Shown here: one piece after another, positions 470 to 59,088 of the stretch
Layout: the number at the start of each line of letters is the position of its first letter
How positions within the stretch are numbered: position 1 is the first letter of the stretch
Source of the DNA: a virus
Taxonomy: Duplodnaviria > Caudoviricetes
Strand: one strand, 5' to 3'
Virus record (IMG/VR): IMGVR_UViG_3300028326_000328
Span: 1 to 64,000 of that record
DNA: 64,000 nucleotides
The notes under the pieces: generated by a model
Databases searched by the model: none
What the model was told of the DNA's origin: nothing
The model's input: only the letters and a program-made list of their open reading frames with translations
Program-made: the position numbers and the translations under genes

Positions 470-1336
470 ATGAAGGACCAGACCTTTGGTATCGAGATCG
501 AGATGAACGGCATCACCCGGGCGAAGGCCGCGGAGGTCATCGCCGCACACTTTGACATCCAGCCCACCCACGTGGGCGGCTCCTACGACACCTGGGCGGT
601 GTACGACCCGGAAGGCCGGCCTTGGAAGCTGGTCTCGGACGCCAGCATCGCCGGCCCGTACGAGGAGCGCACCGAGCTGGTCAGCCCGATCTGCCGGTGG
701 GCGGACATCGCGACGGTCCAGGAACTGGTGCGCAAACTCCGCCGAGCCGGCGCCAAGGCACACGAAAGCTGCGGGATTCACGTGCACATCGGGCTGGGCA
801 GCCACACCCCGAAAACGCTCCGAAATCTGGTGAACATTGTCAACGCCAAGGAGGACCTGCTGACCCAGGCGCTGCAGATCTCACCGGAGCGCCGCACACG
901 CTGGTGCCAGCCGGTGGACGCGTACTTTCTCGCCCGGCTGAACCGGCTCAAGCCGAAAACCCTTCCGGAGTTCGCCCGGGTGTGGTACGACGACCGGAAC
1001 TGGGAACGCCATGCCCATGAGCATTACGACCCCAGCCGGTACCACCTTTTGAACCTCCACTCGGTGTTCCAGAAAGGTACCATCGAGTTCCGAGCCTTCA
1101 ACAGCACACTCCACGCGGGCGAAATCAAGTCCTTCATTCAACTGAGCATGGCGATTTCCCACCAAGCTTTGGAATCAAGTTCGGCCTCGCCACGCCGCCC
1201 GGAGACGGACAACCCCAAGTACACCTTCCGGTGCTGGCTGCTCCGGCTGGGGTTCATCGGCGACGAGTTCGCGACCGCCCGCGAGCACCTGCTCAAGCAC
1301 CTGCCCGGCAACGCCGCTTGGCGCCAGGCGAGCTGA
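470..1336 (+). CDS. Putative amidoligase (COOH-NH2 ligase type 2, Amidoligase_2-like)
   Basis: FGIEIE N-terminus, ELVSP, CGIHVHIG, TIEFRAFNST motifs; AGGAGG RBS. Confidence 0.88.
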   Translation: MKDQTFGIEIEMNGITRAKAAEVIAAHFDIQPTHVGGSYDTWAVYDPEGRPWKLVSDASIAGPYEERTELVSPICRWADIATVQELVRKLRRAGAKAHESCGIHVHIGLGSHTPKTLRNLVNIVNAKEDLLTQALQISPERRTRWCQPVDAYFLARLNRLKPKTLPEFARVWYDDRNWERHAHEHYDPSRYHLLNLHSVFQKGTIEFRAFNSTLHAGEIKSFIQLSMAISHQALESSSASPRRPETDNPKYTFRCWLLRLGFIGDEFATAREHLLKHLPGNAAWRQAS

Positions 1337-1356
1337 CAGCCGGTTTCAAATCAAGC

Positions 1357-1420
1357 GCATCCGCCTGACGAGGCCCGGTGGCTCCGGGCCGAAACGCGAA
1401 ACGCGTCGCGGGATAGCCGC
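1357..1420 (+). ncRNA. Type I hammerhead ribozyme HHR-B1
   Basis: CTGACGA 1365-71, stem II GGCCCGG/CCGGGCC, GAAA 1391-94, stem III CGCG/CGCG, GTC with cleavage after 1407, stem I CCGC/GCGG; loop TGGCT can pair with AGCCG 1415-19. Confidence 0.9.
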
Positions 1421-1452
1421 ACAGCTATGAAATCATATTGAGGAGGAACACC

Positions 1453-1848
1453 ATGAATTTCTTTGAACAGCAGCTCCGAGCGCTCACCGGCAGGAACACG
1501 GCTTTCAAATCAACCAGCCCAGTCTACGTCGGCCGCGCAGCTTTCCTGACGCTGGACGAGCACATCCGGGCACGCATCGAGTTCGTCACCACCGGCACAG
1601 CAGACAAGTACGAGGCCCTGCAGGTCACCATCCTCAACCGCACCGAGGGCAAGGTCGACACACTCCTGCTTCGAAATCAAGACCACTTCGCCTCCATTCG
1701 CACGCCCGGCGGCGACTTGAAGACCCCACACATCTGGATGTATCAGGGTAAGCCGGACTGGTACGGGCGGCCGACCGATTCGGACTTGAAAGCCCTATCC
1801 AAGGCCGCGCACGACTACATCGCGCTTTTCGCGCCGACCGGCTTTTGA
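1453..1848 (+). CDS. Hypothetical protein (131 aa)
   Basis: ORF with GAGGAGG RBS. Confidence 0.75.
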   Translation: MNFFEQQLRALTGRNTAFKSTSPVYVGRAAFLTLDEHIRARIEFVTTGTADKYEALQVTILNRTEGKVDTLLLRNQDHFASIRTPGGDLKTPHIWMYQGKPDWYGRPTDSDLKALSKAAHDYIALFAPTGF

Positions 1849-1853
1849 ATCAA

Positions 1854-1920
1854 GCCCGCCTGACGATGGGCCGCTGGCTTCGGCCCGAAACCGGCACATC
1901 GCCGGTCGCAGGAAGCCACC
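1854..1920 (+). ncRNA. Type I hammerhead ribozyme HHR-B2 (extra U after core)
   Basis: CTGACGA 1860-66, GGGCCG/CGGCCC, GAAA 1887-90, CCGGC/GCCGG, GTC 1905-07, loop CTGGCTT complementary to AAGCCA 1913-18; one mismatch in stem I. Confidence 0.75.
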
Positions 1921-1968
1921 GGCGGTGCCGGTTCCCAAGGCTCCCAAATCAAAAGGAGGACCACACAG

Positions 1969-2193
1969 ATGTACGAGCGCGAAAATGAACAGGACTTCGA
2001 AGAGGTGTTGCAGGACGGCCTCCGGGAACTGATCGCCCAAGACGACGACTACCGCACAGCGGAGGACCTGTGCTGGGAGAACCTTCGGGTTCAGACCTAT
2101 TCCGAAGACGGCGTGATGACGAACGACAAAGGTCTGGTCATCAGCCTGCCCAACGGCCGCGAATACCAACTGACCATAATCCGGAGCCGCTGA
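1969..2193 (+). CDS. Small acidic hypothetical protein (paralog of 55711..55935)
   Basis: AGGAGG RBS; shared C-terminus GVMTxxKGLxIxLPxGxEYQLTIxRSR. Confidence 0.8.
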   Translation: MYERENEQDFEEVLQDGLRELIAQDDDYRTAEDLCWENLRVQTYSEDGVMTNDKGLVISLPNGREYQLTIIRSR

Positions 2194-2225
2194 CACCCCG
2201 CTTTGAAATCAAGAGGAGGTACACC

Positions 2226-2408
2226 ATGAAGCGCATCTTTGACAAGACCACCTGCTGGAACATCTTTGACCACGCCAAGGACCCCGAGTGTTACTGGGCG
2301 CTACAGCACGCCGGGTTGCACGACGCCGCTCGCACAGCCGCCATCTACCTGACGCTCCGGCACCCGCTCCGGATGATCCCGGTGATCATCGCCTGCGCTC
2401 GCTCCTGA
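2226..2408 (+). CDS. Small hypothetical protein (60 aa)
   Basis: GAGGAGGT RBS before ATG 2226. Confidence 0.65.
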   Translation: MKRIFDKTTCWNIFDHAKDPECYWALQHAGLHDAARTAAIYLTLRHPLRMIPVIIACARS

Positions 2409-2447
2409 ATCAACCCTGACTCCCAAAGTAAAACACGGAGGTTTCAC

Positions 2448-2903
2448 ATGAACTACATCGCTTACGGCTCCAACATGGTCCAGGAACAGATAGCGTACCG
2501 CTGCCCGGACGCCCGGCTCATCGGCATGGGGTATCTGCCCGGCGCACAGTTGGAGTTCTTCCTTCACGCCACCGTAGAGCGCTCTCAAATCAAGGCCGGC
2601 CGGAATCCGGTCCCCACCCGTGTGCCGGTCGCCGTCTGGGAGATCAGCGAGGCCGACGAACAGCGGCTCGACCGCTACGAGGGCTACCCCAGCTACTACA
2701 TCAAGGCGGAGCGCACCGTGTGTATGACGGATGGCTCTGAAATCAAGGGCATGATCTACCTGATGAACCACAAGCGCGTCGCGCCGCCGACCCGGGATTA
2801 CTACGAGGGCATCCGGCGGGCGTACCTGGCGCTCGGGTTCCGCTCTGAAATCGAGAAGGTCTTGAAGCCCGCGCTGCTGCGCAGCCTGGGGCGCAAGACC
2901 TGA
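2448..2903 (+). CDS. Gamma-glutamylcyclotransferase (GGCT/AIG2-like) family protein
   Basis: YIAYGSNM N-terminus, LDRYEGYP motif. Confidence 0.88.
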   Translation: MNYIAYGSNMVQEQIAYRCPDARLIGMGYLPGAQLEFFLHATVERSQIKAGRNPVPTRVPVAVWEISEADEQRLDRYEGYPSYYIKAERTVCMTDGSEIKGMIYLMNHKRVAPPTRDYYEGIRRAYLALGFRSEIEKVLKPALLRSLGRKT

Positions 2904-4435: not shown

Positions 4436-4547
4436 GCAAATTATGAGAAACCATAAGAAAGGAGCGGGATTTCTCCCGCCCCGATGGTTCTGACAAGTAT
4501 ACTATACTCCGCGATTCAAGGTGGCGAAAGTGTCTTTTAGTGGCATT

Positions 4548-6814: not shown

Positions 6815-6958
6815 GTGCTTCCTCCATTGGAACAAGTGGAACAGTGGAACAACTCCGCCCTTATATTCCTTACGCGCGGGTGTGCTTGTGTTTCTTGTTT
6901 CCCCTATCCCATTTTGAATATAAGGAGTTGAGTTGTTCCACTTGTTCCTCTCCTTGTA

Positions 6959-9929: not shown

Positions 9930-10348
9930 TTCGTGACCTCCTCACATGCCTTGGTATAGTAGCGGATCCGCTGGCCCTTGCGCATAGCGCGCGCGATCTC
10001 AACGCCCATGCCCCTCGTAATCGCATCTCCGAACACCCAGAGTTCTGCGCATTTTGACAGAAGTACGATGTCCATGAACAGCGCCAGATCGCGCTCAGCC
10101 TCGTCATCGTCTTGCATGAACTGGGGGAACAGCAGATGCGGCGCGATGGGGATGTAGCCGCTATCAACCGCGAAGCGGCAGTAGCGCCGGGCGTTCAGGA
10201 TGTTGACGTCGGTGTCGCCGGAGTAGGGAGAGCACACGTAGACGATCGGTCGGAACCGGGCTTTTCGTAGTTCGGCTTCGATGTTGGAGAAGGCTGCAAA
10301 GACGGTCGGATCGGGGTATCCTTCGTGGTTATACTTGCTGATTGTCAT
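9926..10348 (-). CDS. DUF4406-like (nucleoside deoxyribosyltransferase-like) protein
   Basis: VYVCSPYSGD...APHLLFPQF...GM..EI. Confidence 0.75.
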   Translation of the reverse strand: MTISKYNHEGYPDPTVFAAFSNIEAELRKARFRPIVYVCSPYSGDTDVNILNARRYCRFAVDSGYIPIAPHLLFPQFMQDDDEAERDLALFMDIVLLSKCAELWVFGDAITRGMGVEIARAMRKGQRIRYYTKACEEVTN

Positions 10349-10556
10349 GCCGCGTCGCACCCTTCCAGTGTTTGTAGCTGCATCTCGAACAGCAGATGCC
10401 GGTGCCGTACAGATCGAAGTGTTCATCGGATGCGAGTTCCGCGAGATCGACCTGCAGTTCGCTACCGCAGTCCGGGCAACGGGTGAACACGTTTTCGTCT
10501 GTGATCTCCGTTGTCACCTGAGTTTCCTCGCTGAGTTGTGCCTTGACGTAAAACAT
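10329..10556 (-). CDS. Small zinc-ribbon hypothetical protein
   Basis: CPDCG...CCSRC; AGGAGG RBS. Confidence 0.65.
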   Translation of the reverse strand: MFYVKAQLSEETQVTTEITDENVFTRCPDCGSELQVDLAELASDEHFDLYGTGICCSRCSYKHWKGATRHDNQQV

Positions 10557-10636
10557 AAAAGCCTCCTGCCGCAAGTAGTAGGGCAACGCCCTCTACCTAC
10601 CTGCTGACAAGAGGAGTTGATTTGTGGACAGCCGCG

Positions 10637-12580: not shown

Positions 12581-12634
12581 CGCACCTCAATGGCAATTGG
12601 GCGGCAGATTGCTCCGCCGCCCTTTCCTTTCAGT

Positions 12635-13180
12635 TTATGCCAGGAAATCGTCGTCATCCAGCGTGTCGAACTCGGAAGAAGCGTTGGTACGCCCGCCGAG
12701 CGGCTCGCCGTCGCGCACCTTTTGGATGTTGCCCAAGCCGCAGGCCACGCCGCGATTCCCATTGGTGTTGAACGCATAGAAGCTGAGAGAGACGTGAGCG
12801 TACACACCAGAGTAGACTTCGCTGCGGTCGAGGATGGGGCGCACATGCTTGTCCACGATCTGCGGTGCGGTCTTGCTGTTGGCGTTGATGAAGAAACACC
12901 CCTTGTAGTCATCATCGTCGCGTTCGGTATCGCCATCACGAAGCGGCAGTTTGAGAGCGCCCTTCGGGGGGATCTTCCCGCCAAACTTGCCGACGCCTTC
13001 CTTGATGGCGCAGTCGATGGCGTCGTTGATCGCATTGACTGTCTCCGTATCGGTCTTGGGGATAATGATGGAACAACTGTACTTGGGGTCCCCGCCGTTG
13101 ATGGATTTGGGCTCCCACACGCTGGCGTAAGAAAGGCGGACGAGACCGGTGATCACCTTGGTATTGTTCTGCTTAGCCAT
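12635..13180 (-). CDS. DUF2815 family ssDNA-binding protein
   Basis: VRLSY..VWEPKS, EVYSG, acidic C-terminal tail. Confidence 0.88.
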   Translation of the reverse strand: MAKQNNTKVITGLVRLSYASVWEPKSINGGDPKYSCSIIIPKTDTETVNAINDAIDCAIKEGVGKFGGKIPPKGALKLPLRDGDTERDDDDYKGCFFINANSKTAPQIVDKHVRPILDRSEVYSGVYAHVSLSFYAFNTNGNRGVACGLGNIQKVRDGEPLGGRTNASSEFDTLDDDDFLA

Positions 13181-13182
13181 GA

Positions 13183-14322
13183 TTAAATATCCTCCTGTAT
13201 TTCATTGAAATCTGTGTTGGCGCTGGCGATGGGCGGGCGCTTGTCCGACATGGGCACCAACGTGGGTTTGCCTGCGGGTTTATGGACCAGCCCGCCCAGA
13301 ATGGTTTGGAAGTTCTGCTTGCCCATGAGCTTTTCCATTTCAGTCAGCGGGAGCAGCGTCTTCCGGAAGATGTCGTGATATCCTACGTCATTGGATGCGG
13401 TGATCACGGCCTGCTCATCGGTATACTTGCGATTGGAGCGGCCTTCGACCACTTTCCAATTTTTCCACTGCTTGCCGTGGTTGAGGGCGGCGTCCTGTGC
13501 GTATTCCATGATCTCGTTGGCCCAACTGGTGAGATCAGAGAGCTTGTCCAGAATCTCTTCGATCTCCGAATCCAAGAGCAGCGGCGGGAGGGCGAACTCA
13601 TACTGCGCCAGCCGAAGCTTCTCTTCGGCCCGTGCGCGGCACTTGACTGCTGCCCGGCAGAAGGTACACCACGGGCCGGGATGATAGTCACCTTTGCCCT
13701 CGTAAGCCAAGGCCGCTTTGGGCTTAAGCTCGTCCTCCGCCCACACCTTGAGCTCAGTCACAGGAATCGTCCATGTGCTGATGTTCTCACGCCGGGGTTG
13801 GTAGATGGTCATGGCCACTTCATCGATGTCGTACAGGCTGTCGTAGACATGGAGAGCGCCCAGCGCGTAGAGCATCATCTGCGGGTTGTGATCCGCTTCG
13901 ACCAGCACGCCCTGCCCGTACTTGAAATCGATGATGTGCAGCGTCTTGTCGGAGATGATGACGCAGTCGCCGGTTCCGAAACCATCGGGAACGTAACAGG
14001 AGAAGTCCAGCCGCTGTTCGATGTTGATGATTGGGTCAGCGCAAACTTGCCGGGCTTCGGCGATGGTTTCCAGTACGAACTGCACATACCCATCGGCATA
14101 GCTGTCCATCTCATCACAGTCGTACTGGGAGATGGGCTTTCGGGACTGCTGCTTGAGCGCCCTCCGGAGCTTGTGCTCACACAGCGCGTGGGCGGCGGTG
14201 CCCTCGGCAGCAGCTTCCGTTTCCCGGTCAGCGAACTCCTGCTCCAGCCGGGCCGACGGGTTACAGTTCATCCAGCGGTGTGAAGACGATGCTGACAAGA
14301 TCGCATGTTTTGAAGGGGGCAT
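13183..14322 (-). CDS. DUF2800 family (Cas4-like PD-(D/E)XK) exonuclease
   Basis: HAILSASSSHRW, FGTGD...IIDFKYG, CTFC. Confidence 0.88.
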   Translation of the reverse strand: MPPSKHAILSASSSHRWMNCNPSARLEQEFADRETEAAAEGTAAHALCEHKLRRALKQQSRKPISQYDCDEMDSYADGYVQFVLETIAEARQVCADPIINIEQRLDFSCYVPDGFGTGDCVIISDKTLHIIDFKYGQGVLVEADHNPQMMLYALGALHVYDSLYDIDEVAMTIYQPRRENISTWTIPVTELKVWAEDELKPKAALAYEGKGDYHPGPWCTFCRAAVKCRARAEEKLRLAQYEFALPPLLLDSEIEEILDKLSDLTSWANEIMEYAQDAALNHGKQWKNWKVVEGRSNRKYTDEQAVITASNDVGYHDIFRKTLLPLTEMEKLMGKQNFQTILGGLVHKPAGKPTLVPMSDKRPPIASANTDFNEIQEDI

Positions 14323-31661: not shown

Positions 31662-34600
31662 TTACCCCGTGTAGATCACGGACAGATTTCCGTTGGTTTG
31701 CGGCTCATACGCAAATTTGCCGATCTGCAGGCGGGTAAGAATCTCCGCTTGCGTGACATAGAGCTTGTTATTTGACAGATAGGCGACCTGCGTATTGTTC
31801 ATATAAAAAGCCACCCGGTCGTTGACAACACGGATGGTGATGGGGTTGCCTGACTTCCCGATGATCAAACCGTCATCCCCAAAGGTCATATAGGTTTTGA
31901 TCAAGTTGATCTGTTCTTCGGTGGCCTCCTGCCCCTCGGACAGATCTTTCTCAATTTCCTCCACCTTGCTGACCGCCCATGTGAAATTGGATTCGGTTTG
32001 TTCAGCCAATGTGGAGACGGTTCCCTGAAGCTGCCCAAGTGCGTCGGCAGAGGCATAGTCACGCTTGACTTCCTGCCGTATGGCGTCGGCGGTCAGCGTG
32101 ATCTGTGCCACAGCTTCGCCAACGGCGTCTACGGCTTCGTCCTTCGCAGCGGATACCTCGCCCTCCACATACAACCGCAGCGCTTCATTGCCGGAAATGT
32201 CCACTGCTTGGAGTTTGGCGATGAAGGCTGTGTACGCGAATAAGTCGTCCACGTCGAGGTTGGCGGCCTTGATCGCCCGTACCAGCGCCTCGTCGGCAAA
32301 GATGCTCTGGACGTTGAGCTCGCGGGCGGTGATCGTATTTTGCAGGAGCTTGCCGCCCGGCAGGCTTTCGTCGGCCACATCATCGCCCGTGACAGACTTC
32401 TTTTCGGTGATGATCGAGCCGTCCTCGGCCACAGATACCGCATAAAAGGAACCGTCCGCACCTCGAACGATCAATTCGCCCACGGTCAGGGAAGCCATGT
32501 TTGCCTCGGTCACGGCAAGATCGGCGACATAGAGCTTGCCGTTGATACCGCGCTCGATGATGGCCGTTCCTGCGGTCATATCCTTGATTCGCGCCCAATC
32601 TATGTCGGCGCTTCCGATGCTGGCGTTCACCATCTGCGCAATGGCGGTATTCAGCGTCGTAATGCCCGCCCAATCAATCTGTGCTTCATGCAGATGCGCC
32701 GTGGTGATCTGCGCCACGGCAATGCGCGCGATGGCGGCGTTCAGGTCGCCGATGCTGGCCCAATCGATGTGGGCGTTTTCGATGCTCGCTGCGGTGATCT
32801 GTGCCAGCGCAATCTGGGCGATCCGGGTATTCAGGCTGATGATGTTCGCCCAATCGATGTTCGCCTGATTGATCGTCGCGGTATTGATCTGCGCCACGGC
32901 GATGCTTGCCATCTGTGCTGCCAAACCGCCGATGTCGGCCCAAGAAATGTTGGCGTTCTCGACGTTGGCAGTGGTAATTTGCGCGGTGGCGATGGTGGCC
33001 AGCGCCGCATAGAGCGCATCCGTCGTGACGCTGCCTGCCGCCAACTCCTGTATCTGAGCGGAAATCGCCGTAATCGCGTCCGCGTTTAAGGAGCCGATGG
33101 TCGCTTCCTCGATCTTGGCCCGCGTGATCGCCGCATCTGCAATGAGCGCGTTGACAATAGCTGCAACCTCGATATGCGCCGTCTGAATGGCCGCCAGCCC
33201 GATTTGAAGGCTGCCGACCGCGCCATCCCTGAGTTGGCCCGCACCCACGGAGTTGATGCCCAGCTTCGCGCCGGAGATCAGGCCATTGGCAAGCTGCCGG
33301 GACGAGATCATATTGCCTTCGAGCGTGTCCGTCACGGTGCCGAGGGTCAGGGCGGTGTACTTGTGGGTCAGGCAATCGTAGGTGTACTGCGTCAGCCGCA
33401 TGGATACCGCGACGCCAATGCGCCGGGCGATGACTCGGACGGCATCACCGAGGAAGATATTCTGGAGCGCCCTATACTGCTGGTATTCCTCGGTTTCAGC
33501 GCAGTTGATGAAGTCGACTTTGAGCGTCACAGTGGGCAGGTCGCAACCCTTGCCGTATTCGGCCTGCGCTGCTTTGCGCATCTCCGTGTAGCATTGTGTC
33601 TTGGTCTTTTTGCTGTCGCCCTTCGTGACCTCTTTCGCGTCGGACACCGGCAGGTGAATCCATTTCGGGTGAACGTAGCTGCCGATGTGCGCGCTGTCGA
33701 TGTACAACTCCGGCAGATACAGGACGTTGCCGTCCACATCTTCACCGGTTGGCATGATCCGGGTGACTACATCGGTCAGGTCTACATCGTAGGAAATGCC
33801 GAGCAGGTTTTTCCTTTCCCGAATCTGCACATCCGTATCAGAGCCGATGCGATTGACGAGGAAAGCGTCGAACCAATCCCTCCCCAATTCACCGCCGTAC
33901 TTTTCAACCACGCCGCCCTCACCCAGCAAGGCATCCACGGGATTGACGTTCTCGATTTCCACCTCTTCGGCGGTGGAATCGAGGTCGGAGTAGAAGGTGA
34001 AATCATGCTCGGTCAGGCATTTTGAGGATATGTTTTGAACCACATTCGCCCCGGTCACATTGGCGGCGGGTTTGTAGCTCTTGAGCATGTTATCCATCAA
34101 GTCGTAAAACAGATGGCGCGCATAGATGGTGATCTTCGTGAGCTCCGGCACGGCGCGGTAGATGCGGAACGGTTGGTCACGCAGTTGGCGCGGCTCGACC
34201 ACGGTCTTGCCTGCGGCAGCGGGCGTCGGTTCGGTACGCACATAGGTCAGGTACTGTGAGGCCATGTATCCGCGCTTGCCGTCCGGGCAGGACACCTCAT
34301 ACCATGAGGAAGTTGTTTTGTTGAGGACGATGACCTCGGTGCCTTTCTTGTACTTGGCGAGAATCTTGTACTTGGTTCCGGTGCCGGAGCGCAGGCGTAG
34401 CGGATCGCGGCTGGTGGATATTCGGTAGATCATGCCGCCGCCCGTTTGCGGCGCGAGCTTCACCTGCGGTGTCATTGCTGCGGGCACCGGCGCGCGGAGG
34501 ATGTTGCCCTCGATCAGCCGCCGCCATTTTCCCTGCGCATCCAGCGGATGCTCAAGCGTCAGTTCCCACTCGCCGTTCAGCGTTTCAGTCACGGTGCAAG

Positions 34601-34706
34601 ATGAAGGGCTGACCGGGCCGAGGCCATTTGCCGAGAAATCCTCACAATCGGGTGTGTATACGCAGATCAAGGGCTTCACCTCCTTTTGGGCATAAAAAAG
34701 GCCCAT
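31662..34706 (-). CDS. Tail spike / Tal-like protein with SH3b domain and IDWA repeats
   Basis: LNGEWELTLEHP N-terminus, VVTRIMPTG, SH3b segment, 30-aa repeats. Confidence 0.8.
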   Translation of the reverse strand: MGLFYAQKEVKPLICVYTPDCEDFSANGLGPVSPSSCTVTETLNGEWELTLEHPLDAQGKWRRLIEGNILRAPVPAAMTPQVKLAPQTGGGMIYRISTSRDPLRLRSGTGTKYKILAKYKKGTEVIVLNKTTSSWYEVSCPDGKRGYMASQYLTYVRTEPTPAAAGKTVVEPRQLRDQPFRIYRAVPELTKITIYARHLFYDLMDNMLKSYKPAANVTGANVVQNISSKCLTEHDFTFYSDLDSTAEEVEIENVNPVDALLGEGGVVEKYGGELGRDWFDAFLVNRIGSDTDVQIRERKNLLGISYDVDLTDVVTRIMPTGEDVDGNVLYLPELYIDSAHIGSYVHPKWIHLPVSDAKEVTKGDSKKTKTQCYTEMRKAAQAEYGKGCDLPTVTLKVDFINCAETEEYQQYRALQNIFLGDAVRVIARRIGVAVSMRLTQYTYDCLTHKYTALTLGTVTDTLEGNMISSRQLANGLISGAKLGINSVGAGQLRDGAVGSLQIGLAAIQTAHIEVAAIVNALIADAAITRAKIEEATIGSLNADAITAISAQIQELAAGSVTTDALYAALATIATAQITTANVENANISWADIGGLAAQMASIAVAQINTATINQANIDWANIISLNTRIAQIALAQITAASIENAHIDWASIGDLNAAIARIAVAQITTAHLHEAQIDWAGITTLNTAIAQMVNASIGSADIDWARIKDMTAGTAIIERGINGKLYVADLAVTEANMASLTVGELIVRGADGSFYAVSVAEDGSIITEKKSVTGDDVADESLPGGKLLQNTITARELNVQSIFADEALVRAIKAANLDVDDLFAYTAFIAKLQAVDISGNEALRLYVEGEVSAAKDEAVDAVGEAVAQITLTADAIRQEVKRDYASADALGQLQGTVSTLAEQTESNFTWAVSKVEEIEKDLSEGQEATEEQINLIKTYMTFGDDGLIIGKSGNPITIRVVNDRVAFYMNNTQVAYLSNNKLYVTQAEILTRLQIGKFAYEPQTNGNLSVIYTG

Positions 34707-52096: not shown

Positions 52097-53342
52097 CACC
52101 TCCACGGAAAACTTGGTCGTAGGCGAGCACATCGCGGCCACGTAGAACCTCCACGCCGACAGCCCCACCGACCTGATTGACATACCGCTGCACAATGACG
52201 CTGGCGTACTTGGGATCAAGCTCCATCGTCCGGCAGATGCGGTCGGTCTGCTCACAGGCGATGAGCGTACTGCCAGAGCCGCCAAAAAGATCAAGCACCA
52301 CGCCGTTGGGCGCGGAGCTATTCTTGATGGGATAGGCCAGCAGCGGAATCGGCTTCATCGTGGGATGCTCGGCGCTGCGCTTGGGTTTGTCGAAGTTCCA
52401 GATGGTGGATTGCTTGCGGTCGGCGAACCACCGGTGCTTCCCGTTGGGTAGCCAGCCAAACAGGATCGGCTCATGCTGCCACTGGTAGGGCGAGCGCCCC
52501 AGCACCAAAGAGTTCTTGGCCCAGATGCATACGCCGCTGATGTGGAAGCCCGCCTCTTTGAAGGCGCGCCGGAAGTTCAAGCCCTCCGTGTCGGCATGGA
52601 AGATGTAGGCCGAACCGCCCTCGGCCATATGCGCGGCCATGTTGCGGAACGCAGCCAGCAGGAAATCAAAGAACTTCCCGTCCGACATGCTGTCGTTCTG
52701 GATGGACTTGCCGTCCGCGCTTTCGTAGGCGACATTATAGGGAGGGTCGGTCACCACAAGGTTGGCTTTCAGGCCATCCATGAGCAAGACCACATCGGCC
52801 TCGCTGGTAGCGTCGCCGCAGACCATCCGGTGCCGTCCCAGCGTCCAAATGTCGCCGGACTCCACGAAGGGCTTGATCCCCTCCGGGTCGATGTCGCACT
52901 CGTCGTCCTTGACGTCCTTGTCGTGAACCTTGGAGAACAGGTCATCAATCTCAGCGGCATCAAAGCCGGTCGCGCCGAGGTCGTAGCCATTCTGCTGGAG
53001 GTCTGAGAGCAGGTCGGCCAACGCCACAGGCTCCCATTCACCGACCGCTTTGTTGAGGGCGATGTTGAGGGCCTTTTCGTCCTGCGGGTTTTCGATATGC
53101 ACCACAACGCAATCGATCTCCGTAGCGCCCTCGGCGGTAAGCACCTTGTACCGCTGATGGCCGCCCACGATGTTGCCGGTCACCTCATTCCAGATCACGG
53201 GATCGACATAGCCGAATTCCTTGAGGCTGCGCCTGATCTTCTCGAAGGCCGGATCGCCGGGCTTGAGGTCTTTGCGCGGGTTATACTTCGCGGGCTTGAG
53301 CCGCTCCACGGCGATCCGCTGCAAGTTCATGGTCGTGTTCAC
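52077..53342 (-). CDS. ParB-like N-terminal domain DNA methyltransferase (N6/N4)
   Basis: LKPAKYNPR, VGGHQR, TDPPY, HPTMKP, DLFGGSGST. Confidence 0.9.
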   Translation of the reverse strand: MNTTMNLQRIAVERLKPAKYNPRKDLKPGDPAFEKIRRSLKEFGYVDPVIWNEVTGNIVGGHQRYKVLTAEGATEIDCVVVHIENPQDEKALNIALNKAVGEWEPVALADLLSDLQQNGYDLGATGFDAAEIDDLFSKVHDKDVKDDECDIDPEGIKPFVESGDIWTLGRHRMVCGDATSEADVVLLMDGLKANLVVTDPPYNVAYESADGKSIQNDSMSDGKFFDFLLAAFRNMAAHMAEGGSAYIFHADTEGLNFRRAFKEAGFHISGVCIWAKNSLVLGRSPYQWQHEPILFGWLPNGKHRWFADRKQSTIWNFDKPKRSAEHPTMKPIPLLAYPIKNSSAPNGVVLDLFGGSGSTLIACEQTDRICRTMELDPKYASVIVQRYVNQVGGAVGVEVLRGRDVLAYDQVFRGGDVVEKV

Positions 53343-53400
53343 CGGGTTTCCTCCTTCAACAGCAACAGCCGCCCAATCGGACGGCTGATTTTTCGTTTTG

Positions 53401-53500
53401 GGGGCTGATACCCCCACCCCCGAATTTCGCGGGATTTCACGCGAGAGGGGGGCGCGGTCTCCAGCCGGGGCGCTCCAGAGATCGAATCCCCCCTCCCCAA
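53401..53500 (-). other. Putative cos / packaging-initiation region
   Basis: G-run-rich segment (minus strand GGGGAGGGGGG...GAGACCGCGCCCCCCTCTCGCGTG...CGCGAAATTCGGGGGTGGGG) resembling sequences upstream of terS in HK97-type phages; from pattern memory only. Confidence 0.45.
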
Positions 53501-53505
53501 TACAG

Positions 53506-53690
53506 TTTCGCAGAGCAAAGCGCGAAAGCCGACCACGGCGGTGGACTTTCGCACGGCGAAGCGCGAAAGCCGACCGCGCCGCTGGGACTTCTGCGAAGCA
53601 AAGCGCAAAACCCACCACGGCGGTGGGACTTCTGCGAAGCAAAGCGCAAAAGCCGACCGCGCCGGTCGGGCTTTCGCAGAGCAAAGCGGA
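53506..53690. repeat. Tandem array of about 4.5 imperfect 41-42 bp self-complementary repeats
   Basis: Units TTTCGCAGAGCAAAGCGCGAAAGCCGACCACGGCGGTGGAC and variants. Confidence 0.85.
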
Positions 53691-53816
53691 GAAGCGTTTT
53701 CGGGAAAAAACGGGCGGCGGGCGGGCGAAAACGGGCCGCGCGAAAGGCGCTTCCTATATAGCGCGTGGGGCCGCCGCCGTATCAGAAAAGACGCAAAAAC
53801 GTCGCCGTTAGTTATC

Positions 53817-53846
53817 TTGCGTTTTTGCGCCGCCGGAGTGATGAAT
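53817..53846 (+). promoter_or_regulatory. Putative promoter of accessory operon A
   Basis: TTGCGT-N18-ATGAAT with GAGTGATGAATG, like the promoters at 59117 and 59636. Confidence 0.55.
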
Positions 53847-53914
53847 GGGTCGCGGCAAAAAACGCCGCCGCCGCGGGCGGGAAAAACCGCCGGGCGCGAA
53901 AGGGGAACCCCGCC

Positions 53915-54262
53915 GTGACCACCGCCGAAAAAACCGCCGCCGAAACCTTCTGCGCCGCCGCCGCCGCGCAAACCGCCGAAACCCGCGCCGCCGCCGACCG
54001 GGCCTTCCGGGCCAGCGCCCGCGCCGCCGAGGTGCCCTTCCGCGAAACCCGCGCCGCCGCCGCCCGCGCCAGCGAGGACGCCCGTCGCGCCGCCGAAAAA
54101 GCCGACGCCCTTTTGGACGGCTTTGACCCGGAGCCCTACAGCGACGGGCCGGGCGGGCTTTTCGACCAGACCTTTCAGGCCCTCATGGCGGCACACATGG
54201 CCCTAGACAGCGCCGCCCGCCGCGCCGCCTTCGCCGCCCGGTGTGCCCAAGAGAAGGCGTAG
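53915..54262 (+). CDS. Ala-rich helical hypothetical protein; first gene of accessory operon A
   Basis: GTG start after GAAAGGGG; positional counterpart of 70..441. Confidence 0.6.
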   Translation: MTTAEKTAAETFCAAAAAQTAETRAAADRAFRASARAAEVPFRETRAAAARASEDARRAAEKADALLDGFDPEPYSDGPGGLFDQTFQALMAAHMALDSAARRAAFAARCAQEKA

Positions 54263-54327
54263 GCCCGCCCGATGAGGGCCGGTGGCTCCGGCCCGAAACG
54301 CGCACACCGCGCGTCGCGGGAAGCCGC
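54263..54327 (+). ncRNA. Type I hammerhead ribozyme HHR-A1 (CCGATGA core variant)
   Basis: CCCGC-CCGATGA-GGGCCGG-tggct-CCGGCCC-GAAA-CGCGC-acacc-GCGCG-TC(54315)-GCGGG-AAGCCG. Confidence 0.8.
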
Positions 54328-54353
54328 AAAAACACGAAAGGAGAGGTCTCCTC

Positions 54354-55220
54354 ATGAAAGACCAGACATTCGGCATTGAGATTGAAATGAACCACATCTC
54401 TCGCGCCAAGGCGGCGGAGGTCATCGCCGCGCATTTCGGCACACGCGTGGAATTTGTCGGCGGCACCTACGACACCCGGTGTGTGCCCGACGGGCAAGGC
54501 CGCAAATGGAAGGTGGTGTCCGACGCCAGCATCGATGGGCCTGCCAACGAGCGCACGGAATTTGTCAGCCCCATCTGCCGGTGGGAGGACATCGAAACGG
54601 TACAGGAATTGGTGCGCAACCTCCGCAAGGCGGGCGCGCGACCCGACCCCAGCTGCGGCATCCACGTCCACATCGGGCGCGGGCGGCACACGCCCAAAAC
54701 CCTTCGGAATTTGGTCAACTTGGTCAACGCCAAGGAGGACTTGCTTACGCTGGCTCTCCAAATCTCGCCCGAGCGCCGCGAGCGGTGGTGCAAAAGAATC
54801 GACCCCGACTTCCTCGAACGCCTGAACCGCCGCAAACCGCAAACCGACGCCGCCTTCGCCCAGCTTTGGTACAACACCTCCGGCTGGCAATCACACGCCA
54901 ACCAGCACTACGACCAAAGTCGCTACCGGCTCCTAAATCTACACAGCGTTTTCCAAAAGGGCACGGTGGAATTCCGCGCCTTCAACGCGACGCTCCACGC
55001 GGGCGAGGTCAAGACCTACATCCAGCTTTGCATGGCGATTTCGCACATGGCTTTGGAATCAAGTTCGGCCTCCCCGCGCCGCCCGGAAACGGACAACCCG
55101 AAGTACACCTTCCGGTGCTGGCTCCTCCGGCTGGGGTTCATCGGCCCGGAGTTTGAAACCGCCCGCCAGCACCTGCTCAAATACCTGCCCGGCAACGCCG
55201 CTTGGAGACAGGCGGGCTGA
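54354..55220 (+). CDS. Putative amidoligase (paralog of 470..1336, same length)
   Basis: FGIEIE, CGIHVHIG, TVEFRAFN. Confidence 0.88.
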   Translation: MKDQTFGIEIEMNHISRAKAAEVIAAHFGTRVEFVGGTYDTRCVPDGQGRKWKVVSDASIDGPANERTEFVSPICRWEDIETVQELVRNLRKAGARPDPSCGIHVHIGRGRHTPKTLRNLVNLVNAKEDLLTLALQISPERRERWCKRIDPDFLERLNRRKPQTDAAFAQLWYNTSGWQSHANQHYDQSRYRLLNLHSVFQKGTVEFRAFNATLHAGEVKTYIQLCMAISHMALESSSASPRRPETDNPKYTFRCWLLRLGFIGPEFETARQHLLKYLPGNAAWRQAG

Positions 55221-55260
55221 CGCCCGACCGGCACAGCTTCCAAATCAAGTGTGCTGTGCC

Positions 55261-55321
55261 GCCCGCCCGACGAGGCTGATTGGCCATCAGCCGAAACGTG
55301 CCACACGTCGCGGGAAGCCAC
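55261..55321 (+). ncRNA. Type I hammerhead ribozyme HHR-A2 (CCGACGA core variant)
   Basis: CCCGC-CCGACGA-GGCTGAT-tggcc-ATCAGCC-GAAA-CGTG-cca-CACG-TC(55309)-GCGGG-AAGCCA. Confidence 0.8.
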
Positions 55322-55368
55322 CGGCAGTGCCGGTACCAAAGCCCCCAAATCAAGCGAGGAGGTACACC

Positions 55369-55602
55369 ATGAACGAACGTATCCACCAAGAAATCCGAGG
55401 ACTCCTGAATCACATGCGCCAAGAGCCATTCAATACGCGCGAACACGCCCTCAACATCGCCGCAATCGGTGGCATGCTCACAGCCATCAGGTTCATCACC
55501 GGCGAAAGCTGGGCGATGGTCAACGCAAATCGCGCGACCCGGATGCACATCCAGAACGAAAGGACGGGCGAGTGCATCGAGGGGGATGTCGAAATGTTCT
55601 GA
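55369..55602 (+). CDS. Small hypothetical protein (77 aa)
   Basis: GAGGAGGT RBS. Confidence 0.72.
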   Translation: MNERIHQEIRGLLNHMRQEPFNTREHALNIAAIGGMLTAIRFITGESWAMVNANRATRMHIQNERTGECIEGDVEMF

Positions 55603-55607
55603 AATAA

Positions 55608-55680
55608 GCCCGCCTGACGAGCAGCCCGGTGGCTCCGGGCCGAAACGCTCCGAAATCAACCGGAGCATCGCGGGAAGCCC
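55608..55680 (+). ncRNA. Type I hammerhead ribozyme HHR-A3 (ATC triplet, bulged stem II)
   Basis: CCCGC-CTGACGA-G(ca)GCCCGG-tggct-CCGGGCC-GAAA-CGCTCCG-aaatcaac-CGGAGC-ATC(55669)-GCGGG. Confidence 0.7.
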
Positions 55681-55710
55681 AGCTTCCAAATCAAACGCAG
55701 GAGGTACACC

Positions 55711-55935
55711 ATGAACGAGCATGTGCAAAATCAGGATTCCATCATCACCGAGGAAATCGTAGAGGAAGCCCTTGACGGAATCCTAAACGGGGAATGGGAC
55801 ACAGAAAACAGCGCCCTCGAAGGCGCTCGAACCCGGACATTCCAACAGGCGGGCGTCATGACCTACAACAAGGGGTTGATCATCACCTTGCCCGACGGCA
55901 CAGAGTACCAACTGACCATCGTCCGCAGCCGGTAA
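55711..55935 (+). CDS. Small acidic hypothetical protein (paralog of 1969..2193)
   Basis: AGGAGGT RBS; conserved C-terminus. Confidence 0.8.
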   Translation: MNEHVQNQDSIITEEIVEEALDGILNGEWDTENSALEGARTRTFQQAGVMTYNKGLIITLPDGTEYQLTIVRSR

Positions 55936-55937
55936 GA

Positions 55938-56002
55938 CGCCCACGGGGACACAGCTTAGCACAGGACGAAACGCTCCTAACCGGGAGTGTCGCGGGAGCC
56001 GC
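55938..56002 (+). ncRNA. Degenerate hammerhead remnant
   Basis: GAAA-CGCTCC-taacc-GGGAGTG-TC-GCGGG retained; CTGANGA core and stem II lost. Confidence 0.45.
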
Positions 56003-56033
56003 AAGCTTCCAAATCAAGAAGGAGGCACACGTC

Positions 56034-56336
56034 ATGACGATGGAGGAAAAATGGAACGCCGCTCATGCCCTTACTGACCTCGCCGCTCGCAAGCTCGCCT
56101 TCGCCATTGTACAAACCGAATGGGAAATCGAGGAGGCCACCAAGCGCCTCTAAGACGCGCGCAAACGCGTCGAGGATTCCGCCACCCGGTCCAGTTCTGC
56201 AATGTACGCAGACAGCATCGAAGGCTGGCTGCGCGATTGGCGAAACGAGTACACGCGCCTTGCGGAAAAGAACCGAACGTTGGAGCTCCTGAATCACCTT
56301 GCCCGCGACGCCAAGCCAGAGGCCGCCCGCTCCTAA
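56034..56336 (+). pseudogene. Hypothetical coiled-coil protein interrupted by in-frame TAA (56151-56153)
   Basis: AAGGAGG RBS; same frame continues DARKRVEDS...AARS* to 56336. Confidence 0.6.
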
Positions 56337-56342
56337 ATCAAA

Positions 56343-56392
56343 CTGCCTGAAGATGGCCTTTGGCACAGGCCGGAACGCTCTTCAATCAAGGA
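56343..56392 (+). ncRNA. Degenerate hammerhead remnant
   Basis: CTGAAGA-t-GGCCT-ttggcac-AGGCC-GGAA; no clear NUH or stem I. Confidence 0.35.
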
Positions 56393-56402
56393 GGGACACA
56401 TC

Positions 56403-56621
56403 ATGAAGATCACCACCGCAGCACAGTGCTTTGATATCCTCGACTGGTTCGACGATCCGCTTTACGACTACCTCGCACACAACCTTGTCGCCAAGCTCGA
56501 CGGCGAGGAACGCATCGCCCGAGCGCTCCCACATCTGATCGAACATACCACCGCGCCTGTTGCGGCTCACGCGGATAAGGCGAACGCTTACCCGGTGGAG
56601 TTTTGGAATCAACCCGCCTGA
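56403..56621 (+). CDS. Small hypothetical protein (72 aa); stop codon lies in ribozyme core
   Basis: AGGAGGG RBS; TGA of CTGACGA is the stop. Confidence 0.7.
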   Translation: MKITTAAQCFDILDWFDDPLYDYLAHNLVAKLDGEERIARALPHLIEHTTAPVAAHADKANAYPVEFWNQPA

Positions 56622-56678
56622 CGAGTGCTGCATGGCTCGCAGCCGAAACCGCCCGCTTGGGCGGTCGCGGGAAGCTAC
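56612..56678 (+). ncRNA. Type I hammerhead ribozyme HHR-A4
   Basis: CCCGC-CTGACGA-G(t)GCTGC-atggctc-GCAGCC-GAAA-CCGCCC-gctt-GGGCGG-TC(56666)-GCGGG-AAGCTA. Confidence 0.9.
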
Positions 56679-56710
56679 AGCTTCCAAATCAAACGCAGGA
56701 GGTTTACACC

Positions 56711-56857
56711 ATGAATAGGATTGTCATCAAGGTCTGGCGGGGATTGGTTTCCGAAGTCTACGCAAGCGACGCCAACACAGAAGTCATCGTTATAGATGAG
56801 GATTGCGACGAGGTTCTACTCGCAGACACAGACTTGCCCGCACATCAGGTTTACTGA
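56711..56857 (+). CDS. Small acidic hypothetical protein (48 aa)
   Basis: AGGAGGT RBS before ATG 56711. Confidence 0.65.
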   Translation: MNRIVIKVWRGLVSEVYASDANTEVIVIDEDCDEVLLADTDLPAHQVY

Positions 56858-56887
56858 GCTTACAAATCAACCAGAGGAGGTATTCGA

Positions 56888-57094
56888 TTGAAAAGCATTT
56901 GCATCCGCGTGGAAGATGAAATACATCGCCAGTTGAAATGTGTTCTGCTGTATCGAGGTTCAACTCTTCAGGACTTCGTGATCGGACTAATCGAACGCGA
57001 AATCGAACGCGAGGCGAGCGAAATCGCGTACAACGACACAACCGGCGAGGCAACAAGGCTCTTTCAGCGCGTCGGCATTCCTACCAAGCTGTGA
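56888..57094 (+). CDS. Ribbon-helix-helix-like DNA-binding protein
   Basis: KSICIRVEDEIHRQLK...TLQDFVIGLIE pattern; AGGAGGT RBS with TTG start. Confidence 0.6.
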   Translation: MKSICIRVEDEIHRQLKCVLLYRGSTLQDFVIGLIEREIEREASEIAYNDTTGEATRLFQRVGIPTKL

Positions 57095-57112
57095 AATTAA
57101 GGAGGAAACACA

Positions 57113-57553
57113 ATGAAGTACATCGCTTACGGTTCCAACATGGTCAAGGAGCAAATGGACTACCGCTGCCCGGACGCCAGACTCATCGGCACCGGATACA
57201 TCAAGCAGGCCCGCTTGGAATTCTATCTCCACGCCACCGTCAAACGCTCCCAAATCAAGGACTCGCGTGTGCCGGTGGCGGTGTGGGAGATCTCGGAGGT
57301 AGACGAACGGCGACTCGACCGGTACGAGGGGTTCCCGGATTACTACATCAAGGAGGAATGGCCGGTCACCCTGTCGGACGGCTCCGAAATCAAGGGGATG
57401 ATTTACCTGATGAAGCGCATCCGCAAAGCGCCGCCGAACATGGATTACTTCCAAGGCATCTTCAACGCCTACGAGGACTTGGGCCTTGAATCGGAAATCA
57501 ACAGCGTGTTGATGCCCGCGCTTAGCCGCAGCCTCCGGCGCAAGAAGCGCTGA
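57113..57553 (+). CDS. Gamma-glutamylcyclotransferase family protein (paralog of 2448..2903)
   Basis: YIAYGSNM, LDRYEGFP. Confidence 0.88.
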   Translation: MKYIAYGSNMVKEQMDYRCPDARLIGTGYIKQARLEFYLHATVKRSQIKDSRVPVAVWEISEVDERRLDRYEGFPDYYIKEEWPVTLSDGSEIKGMIYLMKRIRKAPPNMDYFQGIFNAYEDLGLESEINSVLMPALSRSLRRKKR

Positions 57554-57573
57554 CGCACAGCCCCAAACGAGAT

Positions 57574-57604
57574 AAGCCGCTCTCCATCGAGGGCGGCTTT
57601 TTTG
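57574..57604 (+). terminator. Intrinsic terminator of accessory operon A
   Basis: AAGCCGCTCTC-catc-GAGGGCGGCTTTTTT. Confidence 0.8.
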
Positions 57605-57766
57605 CTCTGGAATTGGGCCGACGTTGGCGCGTGTCGGGCCTTGGAATCGGCGGTCGGACAAACCCTCGACCAAGGCCCGCAAGGCCGCACGTGGGGCGAA
57701 CGTGGCGGCGACGCGGGCAAAGAAAAAGCAGCCGCACGGGCTGCTTTGGAATCGAGCGGCGGAGGG

Positions 57767-58285
57767 CTATGGAATCAAGTCCAAGGCTACCTCGGTACCG
57801 CTTTCCGTCGCGCGAAACCGGACGAGCACTTTTCCATCCGCCACATCGTAGACCGCTTGAAACGGGTGGCTCCATAGCGACGTCAGCCCTGCGCACTCCG
57901 TGTAGGCTTTCACCCGATACACATTGAAATCCACTTTGTCGCGCACGGCCTGCCATTCCTCAAAGATGCGGCGCAGACGGGGTACTTGTTCTTTTTGAAG
58001 GTGCTCCATAACGACCGCGCCCGGCAGCGCTTCGAAATCAGATTTCGAGCGCTCCGCTTTGAAACACGCCCAAAATTCAAGCGGCATCGGGCTTTGCATC
58101 ATCTCAAGCACCGCCTCCGTCGTGCCGCAATCATCGCAGACATACAAACCGACCTGACGGCTGAGCGCGTTCCGATGGATTTTCCGGTTCATGGAATCCT
58201 GCCCACAGCGCGGGCAAAGCATGTGCTCCCCGGCCATCTGCCGGACTCTCAAATCAAGTAAGACCTGTTCTTGTTTCTCAGTCAT
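57767..58285 (-). CDS. Zinc-finger hypothetical protein (paralog of 2996..3514)
   Basis: CPRCG...NALSRQ..LYVCDDCG. Confidence 0.75.
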   Translation of the reverse strand: MTEKQEQVLLDLRVRQMAGEHMLCPRCGQDSMNRKIHRNALSRQVGLYVCDDCGTTEAVLEMMQSPMPLEFWACFKAERSKSDFEALPGAVVMEHLQKEQVPRLRRIFEEWQAVRDKVDFNVYRVKAYTECAGLTSLWSHPFQAVYDVADGKVLVRFRATESGTEVALDLIP

Positions 58286-59088
58286 CTTGCTTCGCCCCCC
58301 CTTGTTTCGCGGGCAATCCTGCGGATTTCGGCGTACTTGTCCTTGTGCTTCATGGCTTCATCATCGTTGCGGAAAGCCGTGTGGCCTTTGAGGCCTGTGA
58401 GCAGAGCGTTCCGGGACGCTTTGAAATCAGCGCCGCCAAAGCCCAACCGTAAAAGCCAAGAGCGCAACACATACTTTTCGTTCTCCGGGCGGCGCACCTC
58501 CGCGTTGACCCGCTTCGCCTCTCGCGCCGCGCGCACCATGGCGCTGACCAAGTCGGCATACGCCTTGTTCTTTTCCGGGGCTTCGTCCAGCGGGAAGTTC
58601 AGCGTGACTGTGCCGTCTTGGAAATCGACGCCGGTCAGGTCGCCCAGCGCTTTGAAATCGCCCATCAGGGTTTCAAAATGAGCAAGGGTTTCCGGCAGGT
58701 ATTCGCCCAAGCGAGTCGTGACCGCCTCGGAAATCGAGAAACTCTCGCGCCGCGTGACCCGGTTCAACAGGTGCTGGTAGCCGTAGAGCGTGTAAATCAA
58801 ATTCCGAAGCTGATTCCCGTCCATGTCCTCCGTGGGCACCGAAATCGCCAGCGTCTCAATCTCTGTTTCGATCTCCGGTTCGATGAAGCCGTGTTCCATC
58901 AGGAAGGGCTTCAAGCCTTCCAGTGCCTCGGCATCCTCGCCGGTGATGGAACCGTCGCGCTCCACCGTCACCGGGCCGATGCTGTAGGAAAAGGATGGCG
59001 GCCCCTGATACCGCGATTCCGCTTGCAGGTGCTCTGCAATCTTCTTCACCAAGGTGCGCCGGTCTTCCGCGTGGGTTTGGATGGTCAT
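58282..59088 (-). CDS. Conserved phage protein ('virulence-related'; paralog of 3511..4377)
   Basis: ENEKYVLRSWLLRLGFGG...LKGHTAF. Confidence 0.75.
   Translation of the reverse strand: MTIQTHAEDRRTLVKKIAEHLQAESRYQGPPSFSYSIGPVTVERDGSITGEDAEALEGLKPFLMEHGFIEPEIETEIETLAISVPTEDMDGNQLRNLIYTLYGYQHLLNRVTRRESFSISEAVTTRLGEYLPETLAHFETLMGDFKALGDLTGVDFQDGTVTLNFPLDEAPEKNKAYADLVSAMVRAAREAKRVNAEVRRPENEKYVLRSWLLRLGFGGADFKASRNALLTGLKGHTAFRNDDEAMKHKDKYAEIRRIARETRGGEAR

Follow-up and report, generated by a model that had tools for sequence, protein, structure and literature searches.

A 64,000-nucleotide (nt) stretch of viral DNA (the window; positions 1-64,000 of IMGVR_UViG_3300028326_000328, a virus contig of 72,330 base pairs (bp) in all) carries an accessory operon in which RNA motifs punctuate the spaces between an amidoligase gene, a gamma-glutamyl cyclotransferase (GGCT) gene and a series of small genes. 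As judged from their sequences and from those of their relatives, these motifs are genuine type I hammerhead self-cleaving ribozymes and belong to one subfamily of clustered prophage hammerheads. They lie on the sense strand, and we consider it likely, at a rough probability of 0.75, that they cut one accessory-operon RNA into separate, mutually independent cistron RNAs.

We built a covariance model (R1) on the RNAalifold alignment of five copies, B1 to B4 from the operon just named (operon B) and A1 from a second, related operon (operon A), and searched the 72-kilobase (kb) contig with it on both strands. Six intact type I hammerheads were found, all on the plus strand:

54264..54325, plus strand: hammerhead B1, type I, core CCGAUGA (C at position 4), predicted cut after C54315, R1 88.9 bits, E 1.5e-20
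55262..55320, plus strand: hammerhead B2, type I, core CCGACGA (C at position 4), predicted cut after C55309, R1 78.1 bits
55609..55679, plus strand: hammerhead B3, type I, canonical core CUGACGA, predicted cut after C55669 (AUC), R1 73.6 bits
56613..56677, plus strand: hammerhead B4, type I, canonical core, predicted cut after C56666, R1 77.9 bits
1360..1418, plus strand: hammerhead A1, type I, canonical core, predicted cut after C1407, R1 80.1 bits
1855..1918, plus strand: hammerhead A2, type I, predicted cut after C1907, R1 66.2 bits

The five training copies scored 73.6-88.9 bits (E 1e-16 to 1e-20), and A2, which lay outside the training set, yet reached 66.2 bits (E 8.5e-15). An initial annotation, made from the DNA letters alone, had listed B1 to B4 as intact; all four are present (73.6-88.9 bits), and its predicted cuts after 54315, 55309, 55669 and 56666 are identical to those that we derived independently. 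The word "intact" holds for B3 and B4 and only in part for B1 and B2, whose CCGANGA box has C at core position 4. A1 (R1 span 1354-1424), which lies directly 3' of a second amidoligase gene (470-1336), and A2 (R1 span 1849-1923) come on top of the four. Apart from the six intact copies and two relics (14.1 bits each), R1 gave zero matches on either strand of the whole contig, and no hammerhead copy was found on the contig outside operons A and B.

Two further approaches converged on the same fold. A strict descriptor matched three times in the 72,330-bp contig, with A1 among the three, versus 0 matches in each of 30 dinucleotide-preserving shuffles; it missed B3, B4 and A2 owing to bulges, and R1 was used instead. 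In addition, RNAalifold recovered the three-helix hammerhead junction unaided from the five copies, with compensatory change in 8 of 18 pairs, and the minimum free energy (MFE) folds of B1 and B3 are the hammerhead junction.

The copies share one order of elements from 5' to 3': CCCGC of stem I, the box C(U/C)GANGA, the stem II hairpin, GAAA, the stem III hairpin, the cleavage-site C and GCGGG. Stem I comprises 5 bp (CCCGC/GCGGG), stem II 6-7 bp with a GGC-containing loop, and stem III is closed by an A-U pair; stems II and III are variable in sequence between copies. Both RNAalifold and covariation give the type I topology: the molecule opens at stem I, where its 5' and 3' ends lie, while stems II and III are each capped by a hairpin loop. 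The core C3 U4 G5 A6 N7 G8 A9...G12 A13 A14 is complete in B3, B4, A1 and A2, the last with one additional U between A9 and G10.1, while B1 and B2 have C4. The cleavage-site triplet is GUC in five copies and AUC in one. Stem II of B3 has a CA bulge and its loop III contains the motif AAATCAA, and stem I of A2 has a C.A mismatch.

The 3' tail (A)GCC, located 1-2 A residues past stem I, is complementary to loop II, the pseudoknot of this subfamily measuring 3-6 bp, and all six copies are able to form 4-6 pseudoknot pairs: GGCU of loop II pairs with AGCC at 54322-54325 in B1, UGGC pairs with GCCA in B2, and in A2 the pseudoknot reaches six pairs (UGGCUU/AAGCCA). Among the relatives described below, three covarying pseudoknot classes occur (GGC/GCC, GGU/ACC and GCGG/CCGC), and the complementarity of each loop to its own tail (mean 3.51 bp) exceeded that with swapped partners (3.26 ± 0.07 bp; 2/1000 as high). 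A column-wise test was weak, most columns being invariant. As column counts lent no support to a flanking pair (columns 29/144) or a fourth pair (34/140) as additions to the pseudoknot, we uphold only its GGC/GCC core and the class switches. Core, covariation and comparative data thus bear out the type I identity and the loop II/3'-tail pseudoknot that the initial annotation had claimed. A 6-bp hairpin, ACCGGC-NGT-GCCGGT, is conserved directly 3' of the pseudoknot partner in B2 (55320-55337; loop AGT) and A2 (1918-1935), where it would sit near the 5' end of the downstream cleavage product.

We then turned to 128 related loci (48 in IMG/VR, 80 in bacterial assemblies) fetched with the amidoligase protein, in which R1 found 218 further copies (79 in the viral set, 139 in the bacterial set; up to 8 per locus), every one of them (218/218) on the strand of the amidoligase gene. 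The closer bacterial loci (about 57-92% amidoligase identity) belong mostly to Christensenellales, Oscillospiraceae and unclassified Clostridia, with Candidatus Limiplasma (Christensenellales) at 92%, and stem from gut, rumen and digesters. In the distant amidoligase loci L220-L239 (Lacrimispora, Hungatella, Clostridium; 53-56% identity), some of which are from cultured strains, R1 gave no match and Rfam reported no ribozyme at its gathering score. Two R1 copies are present in Christensenellales phage NatCom_6392 (Ca. Heliusvirales), the closest phage with an annotation; the paper describing Ca. Heliusvirales makes no mention of ribozymes. By exact-pattern scan, the subtype is present in at least 110 viral contigs (>110).

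Pairing in these relatives is maintained through sequence change. Among the 69 distinct viral-contig relatives, 95.4% of cells were paired versus 75.6% in shuffles, with 194 double-change cells, and on none of five measures did any shuffle reach the observed value; likewise, the 129 distinct bacterial-contig relatives had 96.0% of cells paired versus 76.0% in shuffles, with 383 double-change cells. When the 3' partners were slid by 1-3 columns, pairing fell to 28-46%. The catalytic nucleotides are kept as well: every core position is retained in at least 93% of the 198 distinct relatives, N7 alone varying freely, and C3, G5, A6, G8, A9, G12, A13, A14, A15.1 and U16.1 are each at least 97% conserved. 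In the 69 viral-contig relatives, A15.1 is present in 69/69, U16.1 in 68/69, and position H17 is C (67) or A (2); across the relatives G never occurs at position 17, which is C or A apart from a single U in the set of 129. The U inserted after A9 in A2 recurs in 26 of the 69.

The search with Rfam hammerhead models that the initial annotation had named as a check formally failed. At gathering score, Rfam 15 reported no hammerhead in the window, nor in 14 related loci holding about 45 copies, and at E<=10 none was reported on 53000-59000 or on 55595-55690 (96 nt around B3). Only A1 matched RF00163 (Hammerhead_1): a search of 86 nt gave 23.0 bits (E 6e-4), where the gathering score is 34. This model aligns A1 end to end with the core correctly placed, and because it does so at 23 bits we read the Rfam negatives as low sensitivity rather than absence. 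The low scores likely arise because, as compared with the 45-position model, stems II and III of these copies are longer and bulged and their loop III is large. The copies resemble RF00163 in that open stem I topology, core and cleavage site are identical, and they differ from it in their sub-gathering scores; its gathering threshold serves as a working cut-off and does not define the hammerhead fold.

The placement of the copies relative to genes is as regular as their structure. In agreement with the initial annotation, a single plus-strand operon extends from the amidoligase gene (PF12224) to the GGCT/AIG2-like gene (PF06094):

53915..54262, plus strand: first gene of operon B, Ala-rich protein of 115 amino acids (aa), GTG start, homologous to 1-441 and to six related loci
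54354..55220, plus strand: amidoligase gene, 288 aa, PF12224 Amidoligase_2, E 3.8e-65
55369-55602, 55711-55935, 56034-56336, 56403-56621, 56711-56857 and 56888-57094, plus strand: six small genes (open reading frames (ORFs) with ribosome-binding sites)
57113..57553, plus strand: GGCT (gamma-glutamyl cyclotransferase, AIG2-like) gene at the end of operon B, PF06094 E 5e-11, PF13772 E 3e-8
57574..57599, plus strand: terminator-like hairpin of 11 pairs with a T run, 20 nt past the GGCT gene (consensus scan)
470..2903, plus strand: operon A, with amidoligase 470-1336, genes 1453-1848, 1969-2193 and 2226-2408, and GGCT 2448-2903 (Pfam, ORFs)

A hammerhead follows the 53915-54262 gene, the amidoligase gene and the 55369-55602 gene; relics follow 55711-55935 and 56034-56336; and a last hammerhead separates 56403-56621 from 56711-56857, 56888-57094 and the GGCT gene. 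In operon A, one hammerhead follows the amidoligase gene and the other the 1453-1848 gene, ahead of 1969-2193, 2226-2408 and the GGCT gene. The claim that the copies occupy consecutive intergenic spaces thus applies to the first gaps of operon B, the last two (56858-56887 and 57095-57112) being without ribozyme. The predicted cuts in the window fall 38-61 nt upstream of start codons (38, 59, 41 and 44 nt for B1 to B4), in keeping with the 40-60 nt given before. The same holds in the viral set, where a ribosome-binding site, start codon and ORF follow within 110 nt in 73 of 79 copies (median 50 nt), versus 11.7% of random positions. At B4, ribozyme and gene overlap: the stop codon of the 56403-56621 gene (56619-56621) is U4-G5-A6 of the core, an overlap of this 72-aa gene that is kept in five related loci (L030, L032, L034, L036, L049). 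Several of the six small genes encode acidic proteins (isoelectric points 4.1-4.8). None of the six had a Pfam match and there was one PHROG match, of unknown function; for the 53915-54262 protein there was no Pfam or PHROG match.

The copies of operon B span a range from canonical to plainly degenerate. C4 is rare, at 2/69 of the distinct relatives on viral contigs and 4/129 of those on bacterial contigs (about 3%), and B1 shares its C4 with the orthologous copies that precede the amidoligase gene in the two closest relatives, locus L002 and locus L161, the latter being the closest prophage, from a Candidatus Limiplasma metagenome-assembled genome. According to PMC3088659, the U4C change "considerably decreases activity in vitro" but still sustains the infectivity of viroids, and B1 and B2 are best termed attenuated candidates rather than plainly intact copies, which probably cut more slowly. 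The two decayed copies noticed in the initial annotation are real, each retaining part of the motif:

55941..56000, plus strand: decayed hammerhead, R1 14.1 bits, E 0.15
56342..56400, plus strand: truncated hammerhead, R1 14.1 bits, E 0.15

The first retains GAAAC, stem III, GUC, GCGGG and AGCC, has lost the CUGANGA box and stem II, and showed no hammerhead fold (z -0.19). In the second, CUGAAGA and stem II remain, GGAAC replaces GAAAC, and the cleavage site and the 3' strand of stem I are deleted. Neither folds better than shuffled sequence, and on their sequences both are true relics that would no longer cut. AAGGAGG, the former 3' strand of stem III in the relic at 56342, now acts as the ribosome-binding site of the 56403 gene, and the stem III form GCUCY-AAAUCRR-GGAGC is common in the relatives; the relic looks like the outcome of a deletion between the AAATCAA of loop III and that of the downstream leader. 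Both relics flank 56034-56336, the sole gene of the operon with an in-frame stop (TAA 56151-56153), which suggests that this gene and its flanking ribozymes are decaying together. The 100-codon frame could alternatively be two short genes; no homologue of it was found in the fetched related loci.

On the reading that we prefer, operon B would be read as one RNA, and each ribozyme would fold while emerging and cut after C17 (GUC or AUC). Because the ribozymes are of type I, their bulk would stay on the upstream cistron, whose 3' end would then carry a nearly whole, compact ribozyme with a 2',3'-cyclic phosphate, while the downstream cistron would begin with a 5'-OH and GCGGG-A-AGCC, followed by a leader of about 40-60 nt holding the ribosome-binding site. 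Freely exchangeable neighbouring cassettes would thereby become separate RNAs, with stability and translation uncoupled, and 3'-end protection together with cassette insulation is one possible effect of cleavage. It is from the sequence, fold, covariation, strand and position of the copies that we infer co-transcription, cleavage and these consequences; indirect signs of co-transcription are the short gaps, the single strand and the fact that just one terminator-like site (57574-57599) and no promoter-like site were found. That a polycistronic RNA processes itself, as the initial annotation proposed, is a reasonable expectation by analogy with other prophage arrays, and the tuning of stability and stoichiometry without host RNases that it added is pure conjecture.

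Several points weigh against this reading or its details. The curated Rfam hammerhead model stays under its gathering score on these copies, the MFE folds of three copies favour other pairings, and the covariation alignments were fitted to the R1 structure, which favours that structure somewhat; we take the covariation signal as real because of the independent RNAalifold result and the slid controls. B1 and B2 carry the activity-lowering U4C (PMC3088659), and A2 has its stem I mismatch and inserted U. Since two gaps of operon B hold no ribozyme, the units would not all be monocistronic. The promoter that the initial annotation placed at about 53817 found no backing, a consensus scan giving no sigma-70-like promoter in 53000-58500 and 0 sites near 53817. 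In Bacillus, RNase J1 attacks the 5'-OH product of glmS ribozyme cleavage. Degradation of glmS mRNA by cellular RNases after the ribozyme has cut is described in PMC6765202.

The glmS precedent leads to a different account of what active ribozymes would do here, namely that they chiefly lower or grade expression: host 5' exonucleases would attack the 5'-OH ends, so that downstream cassettes are progressively down-tuned, or shut off if cleavage is fast, while slow C4 copies let more full-length RNA pass. The hosts being Clostridia accords with this account, as do the degradation that follows glmS cleavage (PMC6765202) and the hairpin directly past the cut in B2 and A2, which could modulate 5' decay; C4 at the orthologous site in three related phages is what rate tuning would lead one to expect. 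However, the ribozymes precede conserved, presumably needed genes, and stabilisation fits the same data equally well, and we regard an expression-lowering role as unlikely, if the most serious of the alternatives.

Exchange of genes around the ribozymes is evident from neighbour counts, for which the ORFs of all loci were clustered into families. The amidoligase gene has a hammerhead after it in 65 of 105 cases, the gene beyond being drawn from 27 different families; for the 72-aa family (that of 56403-56621) the figure is 16 of 24, and 13 different genes come next; and a hammerhead precedes the 74-aa family (that of 55711-55935) in 12 of 22 cases. For the GGCT gene, the counts are 0/66 after and 1/66 before. 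Homology between operons A and B stops at the 3' edge of the post-amidoligase hammerhead (469-1418 versus 54353-55319), and the only other pieces common to the two operons are ribozyme-leader units. On the basis of the neighbour-family counts and of this break in homology, we conclude that the ribozymes mark the seams of a shuffled cassette region, in line with the published statement that the prophage genes flanked by hammerheads "are not constant" (PMC3088659).

These same seams are what would be expected if the ribozyme-leader units mattered mainly as DNA, that is, as conserved junctions for recombinational cassette exchange with catalysis secondary or dispensable, and the relic at 56342, with its resemblance to a deletion between two AAATCAA copies, could be added in favour. 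Yet stems II and III change freely while staying paired and every catalytic nucleotide is kept, which amounts to selection on RNA rather than on DNA identity and contradicts a purely DNA-level role, and variable stems would cut the homology available for recombination. A DNA role is, in addition, compatible with cleavage but no substitute for it, and we think it doubtful that it would account for the array.

A strand-polar 13-mer, GC(T/C)YYNRAATCA(A), lies against many hammerheads or comes after them, and makes up loop III of B3. It occupies zones of the plus strand in the window (1122-3489 and 55056-58800) and is also present in loci L002-L049 and L161-L240, inside coding sequence too. In 918 kb of related loci, the operon strand has 495 occurrences and the opposite strand none, with almost all of them downstream of the amidoligase gene, and AAATCAA is found 33 times in the window versus 8.4 expected. 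As only about one third of the hammerheads have a 13-mer directly after them, we treat it as a signal separate from the hammerhead, of RNA or DNA. We tentatively raise the possibility, which we think less likely than its opposite by a wide measure, that the operon is a ribozyme-insulated cassette array in which each small accessory gene (possibly anti-defence) would carry its own processing ribozyme and often the 13-mer GCTYYNRAATCAA, such that any cassette could be expressed as its own RNA beside any other.

Pairs of ribozymes might instead excise the RNA between them, the ends being joined by the reverse reaction or an RtcB-type ligase into circular or spliced RNAs, an idea raised by Perreault et al. 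(PMC3088659) and prompted here by genes flanked on both sides; we hold this to be very improbable, since such products were sought and none found in that study and the sequences show no complementary ends beyond stem I. That G+C-rich hairpin pairs (attenuators or protein-binding sites) in a G+C-rich region resemble hammerheads by chance, as sub-gathering Rfam scores might suggest, can be dismissed given 0 descriptor matches in 30 shuffles, thirteen core positions conserved as the hammerhead definition has them with the one free position free, and correct alignment of the core by RF00163 at 23 bits.

The remainder of the contig is that of a phage, with genes for terminase, portal, major head protein, a ParB-methyltransferase fusion, SNF2 helicase, VapE and PolA. 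In a self-comparison of the contig, positions 1-14000 are syntenic with 53845-69422 (64-74% nucleotide identity, same gene order), for which reason we read it as a phage genome of about 53.8 kb followed head to tail by the start of a second, related phage, the 72,330 bp amounting to about 1.3 genome lengths. This two-phage contig may represent either two prophages in tandem or an assembly chimera, and the host is probably a Christensenellales or Oscillospiraceae bacterium. At the two-phage junction, between the ParB-methyltransferase gene and operon B, lie two tandem units of about 83 bp (81% identical; 53514-53688), each a G+C-rich hairpin flanked by GCAAAGCG-type words. Just past each operon, the minus-strand genes 58282-59088 and 3511-4377 match PHROG 2443 "amidoligase enzyme" (E 2e-41 and 2e-25), the matches covering 160-430 of the 801-position profile, and the amidoligase module may, on these matches, have a further component on the opposite strand. 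A direct repeat of about 90 bp (68-70% identity) is internal to the 1014-aa minus-strand ORF 31662-34706, at 32632-32984.

Arrays of this kind have precedents. Perreault et al. (2011) described multiple hammerheads flanking single prophage genes in Clostridium scindens, in Azorhizobium caulinodans and at the ardA locus of Agrobacterium tumefaciens, with pseudoknot tertiary contacts in all three hammerhead types and tolerance of rare core variants (PMC3088659). Tandem prophage hammerheads cut as expected during in vitro transcription of polycistronic fragments of about 2 kb, and for the triple arrangement of A. tumefaciens, expressed in E. coli, cleavage was obtained in vivo as well (PMC3088659). 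The operons analysed here share with those arrays same-strand hammerheads on either side of individual prophage genes or short gene blocks, which vary and are mostly unknown, the contact between stems I and II by pseudoknot, and the proposed processing of a long phage transcript. They differ in number, the tested arrays being tandem and up to triple whereas operon B has four intact and two decayed copies and relatives have up to 8, and in being tied to amidoligase-to-GGCT operons in prophages of Christensenellales, Oscillospiraceae and other Clostridia. The glmS ribozyme of Firmicutes is likewise a self-cleaving mRNA-leader RNA whose cut alters the fate of the downstream message (PMC6765202); unlike the hammerheads, it needs a metabolite cofactor, has a different fold and occurs once per gene, whereas there is no sign of ligand control in the present copies.

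Since prophage arrays of this type were published in 2011 (PMC3088659), the array in the window adds a clean new example to a known kind of system, and our findings leave the 2011 picture of prophage hammerheads unchanged. Later review describes the role of bacterial and phage hammerheads as still open (PMC6765202), and the subfamily offers a large coherent data set on this question, with 218 copies in 128 loci from prophages of gut and rumen Clostridia. Its value lies further in the natural occurrence of slow-looking (U4C) and dead copies within one operon and of a stop codon within a catalytic core. As the Rfam gathering threshold misses the entire subfamily, routine annotation of these abundant gut phages overlooks their ribozymes. 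If the operon is indeed an array of ribozyme-insulated cassettes, it would be an RNA-level counterpart of integron-style modularity, to which the 13-mer would add a further signal, so far undescribed.

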